A DNA stretch of 64,000 bases. Source: a virus. The stretch lies in UHGV virus genome UHGV-1440165; one strand, 5' to 3'. How positions within the stretch are numbered: the stretch's first letter is position 1; the number at the start of each line of letters is the position of its first letter. The translations under genes and the position numbers were made by a program. Below the pieces are notes generated by a model that did not search any database, was not told where the DNA came from, and saw only the letters and a list, made by a program, of their open reading frames with translations. This document shows, one piece after another, positions 3,127 to 59,447 of this stretch.

Positions 3127-3201
3127 AGACTGCTCCAATAAACAAAAGGAGCTGCTATTATAGCAGCCCCTTCATCTATTGAACAGCTTCTGAACTTAAA
3201 T

Positions 3202-11155: not shown

Positions 11156-11962
11156 ATGAAATTGCCTTCATTGCCCAGAACGGAAAAGACGTTCAAAAGT
11201 GATTTTTGGCCGAGTGTTATCAAATACCGCGCTTTCACTGCCGGGCAACAAACCCTCATGCTGCAGGTGGCAGATCCAAACACTCCGGTAGCCGAACGCG
11301 CCGAGATCATGGAGAGCCTGTTTGCAGATTGTGTTGAAGCTGGAGCACCGTTCAACAAATTACCCATCGGTGTGGTTGAAGAAGTGTTCATCCGCATGCG
11401 CAGTATCGCTATTGGCGAGCTGATGAAGATTCGTTACAAGTGCAATAACCCTATCGAAGAAACAACCGACCTCGGTGATGGCGAATCCAGAAAAGAAATG
11501 GTTCCGTGTGGGCAAGAACTGACTCTGCCGATCCCCCTCTTGAACGTGAAATGCGTGGCAAAGGAAGGGTTCAAAGAGGTCTTCGACCTGCCTGGTGGTT
11601 ATCACCTGAAGATGCGCCAGCCGTCCTTCGCTGATGCCACCGCGCTGTCCGAATCGGCAAGTGTTGAGCAAATGCTGGCCACCTTTATCGACTGCTTGTA
11701 CGATGACGACGGCCAGGTGTGGAGTGTTGAGAACCCTGATGAACCGGGTATCAAGCCGGAAGATGCTATCGAGCGCCGTCGTGTCAAAGAAGCGTTTATC
11801 GAATGGGTGAAAGATAACCTCGAATCAGATGTCATCGAGGATATCACCAAGAACTTCTTCCATAAGATTCCTCGCATCCACTACAAGAACAAGATCAAGT
11901 GTCCAAAATGTGGTAAAGAACACCCGATCGAGTTCAACAGCATTAATGAAATTTTCATCTAA
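11156..11962 (+). CDS. putative baseplate protein with C-terminal CxxC (late gene)
   Basis: Late promoter; located upstream of gp5-like and gp25-like genes; C-terminal KCPKCGKEH. Confidence 0.35.
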   Translation: MKLPSLPRTEKTFKSDFWPSVIKYRAFTAGQQTLMLQVADPNTPVAERAEIMESLFADCVEAGAPFNKLPIGVVEEVFIRMRSIAIGELMKIRYKCNNPIEETTDLGDGESRKEMVPCGQELTLPIPLLNVKCVAKEGFKEVFDLPGGYHLKMRQPSFADATALSESASVEQMLATFIDCLYDDDGQVWSVENPDEPGIKPEDAIERRRVKEAFIEWVKDNLESDVIEDITKNFFHKIPRIHYKNKIKCPKCGKEHPIEFNSINEIFI

Positions 11963-12105
11963 TGTTTGAAACTGATTTGCTATCCTACTTCGTGATGTGT
12001 GATGAATTGAAGTTACACGGCTATAACATATTCGAAATCAACGAGTCGATGCCATGGCACCTTGACTTGTTAACCGAAGCCCTCCGGGTCAGGTTATCTA
12101 AGAAG

Positions 12106-12128
12106 AACCCCGCATAAGCGGGGTTTTT
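12106..12128 (+). terminator. rho-independent terminator (AACCCCGCATAAGCGGGGTT + TTTT)
   Basis: Stem-loop plus T-run after 11156..11962. Confidence 0.7.
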
Positions 12129-12468
12129 ATTGGCTTAACTGTAAAACAGGTTAATGCCGCTCCTCTTTACCCGAAATTGTTATAATAGGCGTGTTCCTGA
12201 GTTAACAATTGGCGGTCTCTGGTTTTGAATCAGATTGTCAATTAAAAACCATTTTTCAAGGGATGTTCTGAGGTGTACAGTTATTGCCTCGCTCTTATGC
12301 CTCCATGGCATTGGAATGGTGCTGCCTGCATAAGGCGGTCTGATGAGCGAAGCGAATAGGATCGAATAAGACAATAACGGAACGGAAGCAGAGCTTCCTA
12401 TAGTATATAAGGCAAAATCCGTTGCGCATAAATACCTTCAAATCCTTGTTTGACAACTGGAACACAAC

Positions 12469-14079
12469 ATGTTAGACAAAATGAAATGGTTTTATGGCAC
12501 GGTTGAAGACGTCAACGATCCGGACCAAAACGGGCGCGTGGCCGTCCGCATCTATGGCGTACACACAGACGATCCAGTCCTCCTGCCTACCGATAAACTC
12601 CCATGGGCGAAGGTGTTAATGCCTGCATCGAATGCCTCCTCGGCTGGTTTAGGCTGGTCACCGACTGGTATTATCGTTGGCACTGAGGTCATGGGGTTCG
12701 CCCTGGACGATGCGTATCAGAATCTGCGTATCACTTGGACATGGCCGGGGGCTTCTCCTACCGATGGGGCAGACACAAACCCGCTGGCTCTGGGGCAGGT
12801 TGTGCAATCTGTCGAACGTCAGGCGTACAATGCTGTGACGGACGTGCCTGTGAAGGAAGAAGACACACCGCCACCGGACCCCCAGCCTCCTGTTGGTGGA
12901 TATGATCCTGAAAAATGGATGACTATCGCTCGTGGTGAATTGGGTGTCAAAGAGTACGCTGGCAAGTTCAATAACAACCCACGAATCGTTGAGTACCACA
13001 AGACCACCTCCCTCGGCGCATCTGAAGATGAGGTGTCATGGTGTGCGGCGTTCGTCGGTTGGGTTATGCTCAAGGCCGGATTTACGTCTACGCGCTCTGC
13101 TCTTGCCCGATCATACCTGACATGGGGTAGTCCACTGTCAGGACCACAATATGGCGCTATCGTAGTGTTCCGGCGCGGGAACAACCCTACGTTCGGTCAC
13201 GTGGCGTTTGTACAGAAGTTCGATGCCAACTATGTGTGGTGTCTTGGTGGCAACCAGTCTGACTCCGTGAAGGTGAGCCGTTTCAGCCGATCTTCAGTTC
13301 TGGGCTACCGCTGGCCGGGTCCGACTAACACTACCGCAGCAGCCCCAGCACAACAGAACGGGAAGTGGTCTGAACCTATCCCAGACCGTACTCCAAAAGA
13401 GCAGACGACTCCGCCTCCTTCCGGGCGTGTGCAGGATATTGACAACACTGGCGAGACTATGGTTCCGGCAGCGGGTGGTTCCAAATATCCGTACAACAAT
13501 GTCATGGCTTCACGTGCGGGGCACATCATGGAAGTGGACGACACTCCTGGTGGTGAACGTCTCCACTGGATGCACATGTCAGGCTCGTACAAGCAGATGC
13601 TGCCGGACGGGGATGTTGTCAACAAGTCGGTCAAAGACCACTATGACCTGACTATGTTCAACAAACGCTATTATGTTGGCGGCGATCACAACCTGACTAT
13701 CAAAGGGACTGAGGTGCAGCGCAAGAACGGTGAAGTCTATCACCTGCACTCCAGCAATTACTCAAATGTGGTTGCAGGCACGGCGCTATTAAAGTTCAGC
13801 GATCTGGTCGAAATGCAGGCACAGAAGATCTTGCGTATCATCTGTGAGACTCTTGAAGTTGGCGGTGTTCTGAAAGTTCCTAAGCTGCTGGTCACAGAGA
13901 TCATCGCCGATAAACTGACGGTGGCACAGACAATCAACGGCAACATCATATATGCTGAAGGTGCTGGTCGTGCTTCTTCTCTGTCGGGTGCAACCCCGGC
14001 CAGCCCTACGGGTCCGGGTGAGATAGATATCAAGGCAGAGCTAAAAGACAATGGTGGTAATTTCTCCTCAGGGGAATAA
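12469..14079 (+). CDS. baseplate central spike / tail-associated peptidoglycan hydrolase (T4 gp5-like)
   Basis: N-terminus WFYGTVEDVNDP...RVAVRIYGVHT matches gp5 OB domain (WFVGVVEDVMDP...RVKVRVYGLHT); central CHAP/TIGR02594-like peptidase segment (EVSWCAAFVGWV...GHVAFV); C-terminal repeat region. Confidence 0.8.
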   Translation: MLDKMKWFYGTVEDVNDPDQNGRVAVRIYGVHTDDPVLLPTDKLPWAKVLMPASNASSAGLGWSPTGIIVGTEVMGFALDDAYQNLRITWTWPGASPTDGADTNPLALGQVVQSVERQAYNAVTDVPVKEEDTPPPDPQPPVGGYDPEKWMTIARGELGVKEYAGKFNNNPRIVEYHKTTSLGASEDEVSWCAAFVGWVMLKAGFTSTRSALARSYLTWGSPLSGPQYGAIVVFRRGNNPTFGHVAFVQKFDANYVWCLGGNQSDSVKVSRFSRSSVLGYRWPGPTNTTAAAPAQQNGKWSEPIPDRTPKEQTTPPPSGRVQDIDNTGETMVPAAGGSKYPYNNVMASRAGHIMEVDDTPGGERLHWMHMSGSYKQMLPDGDVVNKSVKDHYDLTMFNKRYYVGGDHNLTIKGTEVQRKNGEVYHLHSSNYSNVVAGTALLKFSDLVEMQAQKILRIICETLEVGGVLKVPKLLVTEIIADKLTVAQTINGNIIYAEGAGRASSLSGATPASPTGPGEIDIKAELKDNGGNFSSGE

Positions 14080-58357: not shown

Positions 58358-58436
58358 TTCAGCCTCTTGTAGAAGAATCATTTCAAATGGGCGGGAAAGC
58401 CCCGCCCACACATTATAGCATCAGGCTGGAGATTGA

Positions 58437-59105: not shown

Positions 59106-59211
59106 TTATGTATCCTCAAAATATAGTGGGGGTTCAAGTCATGTTCGACGCAATCTAGTATCGCTGTGTTGTGCTTATAGAACAAGTGGCAAATTGCGCT
59201 ACGCGTTATAA

Positions 59212-59230
59212 TAAATGCCTTCGGCATTTA
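59212..59230. terminator. hairpin AAATGCC-TTCG-GGCATTT (UUCG tetraloop) in AT-rich intergenic region
   Basis: Inverted repeat read directly. Confidence 0.4.
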
Positions 59231-59383
59231 TGGACTTTATTAAAGATAATAACCTTTATTATTCCTATTCGCTTCGCTCATAAAACAAATACTCGTTGCT
59301 CGTTAACACTCACAACTCGTATAATACCACGCCAGATGTTCAACAAGAAAGCAGTTTTTATTCAACAGCAAAATTAATTTAAT

Positions 59384-59412
59384 TTGGTCTAAACATGTAC
59401 GCGAAATAATAT
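59384..59412 (+). promoter_or_regulatory. sigma70-like promoter TTGGTC-N17-TAATAT for 59448 gene
   Basis: Hexamers and spacing. Confidence 0.4.
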
Positions 59413-59447
59413 GTATGTCAGGTTAACCCAACACACGAGAGTAATAT

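Follow-up and report, generated by a model that had tools for sequence, protein, structure and literature searches.

The HK022 put antitermination RNA and the lambda nut/boxB sites are promoter-proximal, cis-acting phage RNAs, and the T4 origin oriE is located in the gene 5 region. The T4 origins oriF and oriG comprise a promoter and a downstream unwinding element and carry persistent R-loops; the more active T4 origins lie near points of transcriptional divergence, oriE lies near repEA and has 12-nucleotide (nt) iterons, and the origins share no sequence motif (PMC3016281). T4-like phages also carry PeSL and PmSL, which are composite promoter-stem-loop cassettes (Arbiol 2010; Comeau 2014, PMC4122927). 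The PeSLs are short, have a simple terminator-like stem, and are preferentially found in hyperplastic regions beside variable open reading frames (ORFs) (PMC4122927). For the Ackermannviridae, genome papers report homologues of gp45, gp55 and gp33 and no MotA or AsiA, and leave early and middle regulation unknown (PMC3184105). Here we describe a conserved non-coding element, R1, which lies directly upstream of a gp5-like gene, within positions 11,963 to 12,468 of a 64,000-nt stretch (the window) of the virus genome UHGV-1440165. Sequence comparison shows R1 to be one of three paralogous structured non-coding elements per genome, family-wide in Ackermannviridae; R2 and R3 precede the gp45-like and gp6-like genes.

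The window is a segment of an Ackermannviridae (Agtrevirus-like) phage. Over the region its closest relative is Salmonella phage pSal-SNUABM-02 (Agtrevirus), with 98.6% identity, and Limestonevirus and Ag3-type phages are about 90% identical. The locus is flanked by a gp26-like baseplate hub gene (11156-11962) and by the gp5-like baseplate hub/tail lysozyme gene (12469-14079, plus strand; phrog_430, E = 7e-153). An earlier note on this DNA, made from its letters, had taken the 506 base pairs (bp) between them as a single ORF-poor region with a possible small RNA or long regulated leader. The first 156 bp proved to be a gene of 51 amino acids, described below, whereas the remaining 340 bp or so (about 12129-12468) are indeed non-coding. 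They are not clearly the longest non-coding stretch of the window, as had been stated, the region upstream of gp45 (59106-59447) having 342 bp.

Clades were compared across two subfamilies, Aglimvirinae and Cvivirinae, and the genus Taipeivirus, with Erwinia phage Bue1 and phage MAM1 as further relatives, joined by Miltonvirus, Nezavisimistyvirus and Vibrio phages for the protein of the small gene. Three-clade identity is the share of alignment columns that are the same in all of the window, Vi01 and Klebsiella phage T751. The earlier note had made its proposal depend on conservation of the region, and the non-coding stretch is conserved, with matches in 272 phage records, all Ackermannviridae-like. 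Among the matches listed, nearly all have no feature annotated under the match, the exceptions being one terminator and one hypothetical protein. The core of the stretch extends over about 12280-12400. Three-clade identity is 0.73-0.77 at 12279-12338 and about 0.4-0.8 in the coding flanks; by this measure the core equals the best coding blocks and exceeds the average for coding DNA, and sequence comparison places it under strong purifying selection.

Indels of 1 and 2 nt separate the clades inside the core and a check of both strands found no ORF common to all clades, so that the core cannot be coding; a candidate ATG is CTG in Taipeivirus. A scan for tRNA and tmRNA genes found none. We give hardly any credence to a missed small protein gene within 12129-12468, for example on the minus strand at 12180-12374, which the earlier note had already judged spurious, or on the plus strand at 12235-12333. 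Such ORFs of 64 and 32 codons exist, and the minus-strand frame is open in Aglimvirinae and Cvivirinae; however, the frames are broken in Taipeivirus, the core has its 1-2-nt indels, both ORFs begin with TTG, and the seeming peptide similarity merely tracks the nucleotide conservation of the helices described next.

The core contains a series of plus-strand helices. Hairpin Hb (AUGCC, 12297-12301, with GGCAU, 12307-12311) is paired in 100% of 20-25 distinct sequences, as is a 4-bp pseudoknot between its loop (CCAU, 12303-12306) and AUGG at 12316-12319. Hairpin Hc follows (GCUGCCU, 12321-12327, with AGGCGGU, 12333-12339), again 100% paired, and then hairpin Hd (12340-12360), a tandem-G·A hairpin of sequence CUGAU-GA-GC-GAA-GC-GA-AUAGG that is the module common to all three paralogues. 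Its form, Y-GA-GC-loop-GC-GA-R, places two G·A pairs next to each other; the flanking pair covaries between U-A and C-G, the loop is variable (GAA, UUCA, AAA, AAC, GUA and AUA were seen), and the stem can be extended. In R3 of phages CBA120 and bering (sequences L037 and L038; about 380-410 of L037), a 15-nt insertion converts the GC-GAA-GC tip into a GC-rich stem of 7-8 bp, GCGAGGGC-GUCA-GCCCCCUCGC, in which the inserted bases are complementary and the flanking GA/GA is kept. The last hairpin, He (GGAAGC-AGA-GCUUCC, 12384-12398; -8.1 kcal/mol), is followed by UAUAGUAUAUAA and may mark the 3' end of the predicted RNA or act as a weak terminator.

Pairing in these helices persists through changes of sequence. 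The two outer pairs of Hb change from A-U/U-A to C-G/A-U in the gp6 paralogue, one pseudoknot pair changes from A-U to C-G in Taipeivirus in the gp5 and gp6 copies alike, and Hc shows double changes from C-G to U-A and from U-A to C-G. The stem of He is replaced altogether, by GGAUGC/GCAUCC in Taipeivirus, GGCGGC/GCCGCC in Bue1 and UUAAUUC/GAAUUAA in MAM1. Helices were counted on anchored core alignments of 20 distinct sequences, and of 25 after a covariance-model search; RNAalifold applied to all 240 nt yielded a weak consensus owing to misalignment of the 3' hairpin by MAFFT, and anchored sub-alignments were used instead. Overall, 92-93% of cells were paired, against 19-53% when the 3' partners were slid by 1-3 columns. 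For the 20-sequence set the figures were 93% against 26-48%, with three helices at 100% and 7 pairs changed on both sides, and the 25 sequences reproduced this result. The secondary-structure analysis, which the earlier note had called for, thus returned plus-strand helices kept with compensatory changes.

The fold is specific to the gp5-sense strand, because on the opposite strand each G·U becomes C·A and each G·A becomes a pyrimidine-pyrimidine mismatch. Hc has conserved G·U and U·G pairs, with A-U and C-G as their alternates; the conserved G·U pairs and the alternation of G·U with A-U favour an RNA of the plus strand over duplex DNA. We consider it very probable that R1 is a functional, strand-specific structured element.

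R2 occupies 59106-59447 (342 bp, minus strand), a divergent intergenic region that precedes the gp45-like sliding clamp gene. Its long hairpin of about 38 nt (59285-59322) has two tandem G·A motifs; a tandem-G·A hairpin (59263-59285), in which the 19-nt heart of Hd recurs on the minus strand, and a 3' hairpin (AAAUGCC/GGCAUUU, 59213-59231) are also present. A conserved sigma-70-like TTGTTC-N17-GATACT lies between R2 and gp45. In relatives R2 is unannotated, apart from one spurious small coding sequence in Mutine. R3 was found in the remaining sequence of the closest genome, outside the window, upstream of the gp6-like wedge gene (L036, 12494-12839; about 67493-67838 of MT857002.1), and combines Hb, the pseudoknot, Hc and Hd of R1 with the long 5' hairpin of R2. 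That long hairpin, AC-GA-GUUGU-GA-GY-loop-RC-GA-GCAAC-GA-GU, is 100% paired in R2 and R3, and in 4 of its pairs both partners have changed. Each of the two elements is conserved in about 272-276 records, R3 mostly at 80-90% identity. Each of the three elements is oriented as the gene that follows it and stands directly upstream of the promoter of gp5, gp6 or gp45.

The covariance search that the earlier note had suggested matched R1 and R3, and weakly R2, across the genome, with no other copies. Outside Ackermannviridae, a covariance-model search of IMG/VR gave only weak, high-GC chance matches. A 16-base pattern scan of 596 Gb of bacterial genomes hit scattered, unrelated, mostly high-GC taxa, with no enterobacterial host among the matches listed; these were treated as chance, since about 280 matches are estimated by chance. 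The generic tandem-G·A hairpin pattern is not enriched in the window (10 occurrences, against 7.9 in shuffles), and the motif alone is therefore not diagnostic.

Upstream of the core lies a promoter-like module, P2 (12244-12281, plus strand), made up of an A-tract resembling an UP element (12244-12248), a weak -35 (TTTTCA, 12253-12258), a variable 17-nt spacer and a -10-like box (TACAGT, 12276-12281). All three elements carry the module, as an A-tract, a T-rich block ending in TTTC and a G-TAnnnT box after a variable spacer. The T-rich block is TTTTCA or TTTTCT in R1 and R3 and TTTCTT in R2. The TAnnnT box varies by clade (TACAGT, TATGGT and TATAAT in R1; TATTAT, TAATAT and TACTAT in R2; TATCGT, TATCTT and TATGCT in R3), and its distance from the A-tract is fixed at 26-27 nt in all paralogues and clades. 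Genome matches to the module are the three elements and one isolated site (L035, about 32161, minus strand). If the module acts as a promoter, the A-tract would fall at about -44 to -40, the proximal subsite of an UP element, ahead of a weak -35 and a -10. It then predicts RNAs of about 110-125 nt at all three loci, ending at their 3' hairpins.

The earlier note had placed the start of the RNA further upstream, at an extended -10 box. The box TGTTATAAT (12178-12186, plus strand), candidate promoter P1, is present as noted and is an exact match to TGnTATAAT without a -35, but its conservation is partial. Other clades have TGTTATAAC or TGCTATAAC, with the TATAAY part and its position retained in Aglimvirinae and Cvivirinae; Taipeivirus has TCTTATAAT, and the segment is absent in Bue1. 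TGNTATAAY is modestly enriched in the window (6 matches, 1.9 expected). Two further TGCTATAAT boxes lie on the minus strand, at 3140-3180 and 58412-58420 of the window; one sits in the loop of a GGGGCTGC/GCAGCTCC hairpin with a T-rich tail, as in a terminator, and the other in the 25 nt that separate gp45 from the following gene, immediately ahead of a GC-rich hairpin.

The some 80 nt that follow the extended -10 turned out to be the least conserved part of the region. Three-clade identity is lowest at 12190-12248 (0.23-0.40), and in the variable segment 12190-12243 (plus strand) only TGTTCCTGA and TTGAA are conserved; its folds differ from clade to clade, with z-scores from +0.4 to -3.9 and no consistent fold. 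Bue1 lacks both the extended -10 and the variable segment, yet retains the P2 module and a structured core. In Bue1 this core includes a long hairpin whose two tandem G·A motifs stand on stems of unrelated sequence; MAM1 likewise keeps tandem-G·A hairpins on unrelated stems (both read by eye). Because Bue1 keeps P2 and the core, we regard these as the essential unit, and the extended -10 as accessory or lineage-specific. We think it unlikely that the extended -10 at 12178 drives a small RNA of about 210-270 nt, or a long leader running into gp5. To its credit, the box is perfect and holds its position in two subfamilies, a start there would bring the helices that abut the -10-like box of P2 inside the RNA, and in the window a G·U-rich hairpin (12207-12243) can arise from the 50 nt that follow. 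Against this, the TG is lost in Taipeivirus, the segment is missing from Bue1, the first 80 nt or so share no common fold, and no obvious counterpart of the box is seen in the two paralogues (by eye, without a formal search). It is more likely that an RNA is driven by P2. The proposal of a small RNA or regulated leader is therefore partly supported, in so far as the core is conserved, non-coding and endowed with covarying plus-strand helices, whereas the conserved unit begins at the second promoter-like module, 12244-12281.

Do these features require an RNA at all? In a purely DNA-level region, promoters, operators and palindromes would be packed together and recombined among the three loci, and any RNA would be functionless. 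The promoter-like module shows a classic pattern, two conserved blocks around a variable spacer of fixed length; TATAAT-like boxes stand directly after the 3' hairpins and the sigma-70-like motif precedes gp45, and modules have been recombined between loci and clades, as in the PeSL cassettes (PMC4122927). We nevertheless find such a reading improbable. The helices keep complementarity while their letters change, and tolerate G·U but not C·A, whereas DNA-binding sites normally conserve sequence and not pairing. Moreover, the pseudoknot change from A-U to C-G occurs in both Taipeivirus copies, and the apical insertion that extends the stem retains complementarity.

Downstream of the core, the late-promoter-like box CATAAATACC (12427-12436, plus strand) stands 33 nt before the gp5 start codon. 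The late box CATAAATA that the earlier note had located at 12427-12434 was found there, is invariant in five clades, and belongs to a motif enriched in the window: the relaxed form TAAATAYC occurs 7 times, 1.75 being expected, and 0 of 100 shuffles reach 7. These copies include one 35 nt before the gp26-like gene and the one before gp5. As in T4-type late promoters, there is an TATAAATA-like -10 without a -35, near late genes and recurrent. The LIMEstone1 record annotates a putative late promoter at the box, and the enrichment together with the copy before the gp26-like gene supports this reading by the LIMEstone1 authors.

The association between the tandem-G·A hairpin and these three genes reaches beyond the closer relatives. 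Vibrio phage D533, whose gp26 is only 29% identical, has a GGGG-U-GA-GC-GAA-GC-GA-A-CCCC hairpin after a GTATAAT box, 22 nt before the gp5 ATG, and an identical copy of this tandem-G·A hairpin in a long non-coding region upstream of its gp6-like gene; upstream of gp45 there is a simpler GCGAAGC-topped hairpin, GAUU-GC-GAA-GC-AAUC, after a TATATT box. Since it is kept in such a distant phage, the tie of the hairpin to the regions upstream of gp5, gp6 and gp45 is old, which argues for a function tied to these genes and against a free-standing small RNA that could lie anywhere. The D533 region upstream of the gp6-like gene (L211, 39630-40410; 780 bp, non-coding) also holds a GGGUUAC-GAA-GUAACCC hairpin followed by AUAGUCCCUUU, and two direct repeats of about 150 bp (CCTCTCCTTGCCTCAGAGCTGTTT...). 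Elsewhere in D533 (L212, 18414-18842), a 'translation repressor' (RegA-like) is annotated after the clamp-loader genes, as in T4.

From these observations we infer that transcription of the element would most likely precede the late phase and begin at a sigma-70-type promoter of its own, P2, with a longer form possibly starting at the extended -10 at 12178. The predicted RNA, about 120 nt long (roughly 12286 to 12403), would consist of a hairpin with a pseudoknot, a G·U hairpin, the tandem-G·A hairpin and a 3' hairpin. The tandem-G·A hairpin could be a common protein-binding operator or decoy that links gp5, gp6 and gp45, and the RNA may serve pre-late transcripts in cis, as their insulator or leader, or be a decoy that works in trans. 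Protein binding is preferred over antisense pairing because conservation falls on helices, G·A pairs and the pseudoknot, and the hairpin loops vary. For this specific mechanism, of structured and probably protein-binding RNAs or leaders driven by P2, we would put the chances at about even.

Several points weigh against it. The fold energy of the region is modestly better than that of shuffles, with z-scores of -2.0 on the plus and -1.75 on the minus strand. Independent compensatory events are few, because the clades are few and closely related, and phylogeny alone can beat shuffle controls. The 3' hairpins are without U-tracts, leaving a discrete 3' end uncertain, and P2 has a poor -35. The TAnTAT box of R2 is overlapped by the outer stem of the long hairpin, which is at odds with a start 7 nt downstream of the box, and in R1 a possible closing helix (UUAUUG/CAAUAA) abuts the -10-like box. 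A cis role in late expression is left unexplained, because late gp5 mRNA from CATAAATA excludes the element. Finally, a literature search for Ackermannviridae transcriptomes and small RNAs returned nothing relevant, and the RNA itself is a prediction.

The main rival, although we think it unlikely, is an R-loop origin or a built-in enhancer of late transcription. Here RNA from the pre-late promoter would stay hybridised, with the hairpins forming in the RNA or in the displaced sense DNA, and its 3' end would prime the leading strand or load the gp45 clamp, which would in turn activate the late promoter. The arrangement in the genome suits such a role. The three copies lie about 41, 47 and 73 kilobases (kb) apart around the 161-kb genome, R2 and R3 are in divergent intergenic regions, the minimum of cumulative GC skew falls within about 1 kb of R3, and all copies point at the next promoter and lie within 100 nt of it. 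A/T-rich stretches follow the structured part, and are longer in R2; the phages have homologues of gp45, gp55 and gp33 and no MotA or AsiA (PMC3184105), and by analogy with T4 an RNA hybridised immediately before a late promoter would present its 3' end in the polarity needed for clamp loading. However, T4 R-loops are sequence-independent (PMC3016281), so that a pseudoknot and covarying helices are not expected of them, and the conserved G·U pairs favour an RNA fold over DNA hairpins. Furthermore, the A/T-rich segments are short in R1, and the GC skew is weak and confounded by gene orientation.

The two ideas could also be joined. In this case the three loci would be units of a pre-late promoter and a structured RNA in which an R-loop, or protein recruitment by the tandem-G·A hairpins, gives the gp45 clamp or the replisome a fixed point of entry upstream of the gp5, gp6 and gp45 promoters. 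We regard this combination as quite unlikely; if true, such units would build the early-to-late switch, or the firing of origins, firmly into a T4-like lineage without MotA and AsiA. The three elements are in any event testable candidates for the missing regulatory layer, or for replication origins, in ViI, CBA120 and LIMEstone-type phages, whose uses include biocontrol and therapy.

The 5' part of the locus is of a different nature. A small, weakly gp51-like gene of 51 amino acids (11962-12117, plus strand) lies directly 3' of the gp26-like gene and overlaps its stop codon (TAATG). Its protein matches phrog_9633, of unknown function, over its full length (E = 3e-37), and more weakly phrog_634, 'baseplate hub assembly catalyst' (E = 7e-4, C-terminal 48 residues only). 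Its amino acids are kept, with synonymous third-position changes, in Vi01, Det7, Kuttervirus, Taipeivirus, Miltonvirus, Nezavisimistyvirus, MAM1, Bue1 and Vibrio phages, a pattern that marks 11962-12117 as a real protein-coding gene conserved family-wide. The LIMEstone1 and pSal-SNUABM-02 records annotate it as a coding sequence, and it is unannotated in the ViI, T751 and KP6F1 records examined; our work thus corrects the annotation by adding the 51-amino-acid gene where these three records omit it.

At the overlap with the gp26 stop (11948-11970), the first codon of the small gene is ATG in Aglimvirinae, ATT in Kuttervirus and Taipeivirus, ATC in MAM1 and ATA in Bue1, and the residues just after it (FE.DL) are conserved despite the codon variation. 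First codons of the form AUN followed by conserved residues suggest a start by termination-reinitiation at a near-cognate codon. Another possibility is a -1 slip at the invariant GAAATTTTCAT (UUC to UUU), by which the small ORF would be joined in a fusion with gp26.

The stop codon of the small gene lies inside the loop of an intrinsic terminator (12106-12128, plus strand), which ends the gp26/small-ORF transcript. A 6-bp stem (CCCCGC, 12108-12113, with GCGGGG, 12118-12123) carries the loop ATAA and is followed by five T residues (12124-12128), that is, by the G+C-rich stem-loop and U-tract of a rho-independent terminator at the end of a transcription unit. The earlier note was right to call this terminator: its fold has -20.1 kcal/mol (z = -5.4), its stem changes in a compensatory way between clades (CCCCGC/GCGGGG, TCCCGC/GCGGGA, CCCCAC/GTGGGG), and it is annotated in the LIMEstone1 and Mutine records. 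A simple terminator scan overlooked it, probably because the stem extension of the scan absorbed the T-run. Directly after the terminator comes a short hairpin, UUAACUG-UAAAA-CAG(G)UUAA (12135-12154, plus strand). Read from the alignment by eye and not formally counted, its stem letters vary by clade with complementarity retained.

Comparison with catalogued RNAs yielded no relative of the three elements. Rfam 15 gave no match for the entire window at the gathering threshold, and searches with R1 at E<=10 and with R2 and R3 at E<=1 returned only terminator-type hairpins or far sub-threshold matches. The element family is absent from Rfam and from the literature searched and, if it is an RNA, is probably a new family whose tandem-G·A architecture is unusual and which would extend the sparse catalogue of phage non-coding RNAs.

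A type III hammerhead ribozyme, with GGCGGU-CUGAUGA-GC-GAA-GC-GAA-U read as stem I, CUGANGA core, stem II and GAA, is suggested by a string visible by eye at 12334-12356, and we consider it effectively refuted. The string is confined to Aglimvirinae, while Cvivirinae have GUUACGA...GAG and Taipeivirus UUCACGA...GAG, with loss of the essential G5 and A14; stem II has only 2 bp, the 15.1-16.1 pair would be U·G, and Rfam gave no hammerhead family match for R1 even at E<=10. The likeness is a lineage-specific coincidence in a core that is not conserved. An Hfq-type base-pairing small RNA was rejected as well, the conserved bases being in the helices and pseudoknot, the loops varying without a conserved seed, and the 3' hairpins being followed by UAUAGUAU or AUUAUAAC without a U-tail. 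So was pairing between the CUCCAU loop and the ribosome-binding site of gp6: in Taipeivirus it is the pseudoknot partner, not the ribosome-binding site, that compensates for the change.

Among described phage systems, the PeSL cassettes resemble the present elements as repeated intergenic cassettes that join a sigma-70-like promoter to stem-loops and exchange modules between loci. However, the present elements are about 200-340 bp long, number only three in a 161-kb genome, each ahead of a core gene (gp5, gp6 or gp45), and contain a pseudoknot as well as tandem-G·A helices, all with covariation; they thus differ from that class in length, complexity, location and copy number. The T4 origins, with a promoter for a non-coding transcript near a point of divergence and several copies per genome, resemble the arrangement predicted here, but need no specific RNA structure, whereas the present elements have conserved helices and no iterons. 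With put and nut they would have in common stem-loops just after a promoter, orientation in the sense of the gene, and, under the mechanism proposed here, binding of protein or RNA polymerase rather than base-pairing. The gp5 unit differs in being short (gp5 and one gene) and in having its own late promoter after the element, for which reason control of read-through is not obviously needed there. Tandem sheared G·A pairs in the context 5'-CGAG-3'/5'-CGAG-3', and GCGAAGC mini-hairpins, are generic structural motifs and not a functional family. The hairpin shared by the three elements, Y-GA-GC-loop-GC-GA-R, has just this sheared-G·A context, and a GCGAAGC tip is found in the window, in D533 and in several other copies; it differs from the generic motif in that its loop varies and its stem can be extended.

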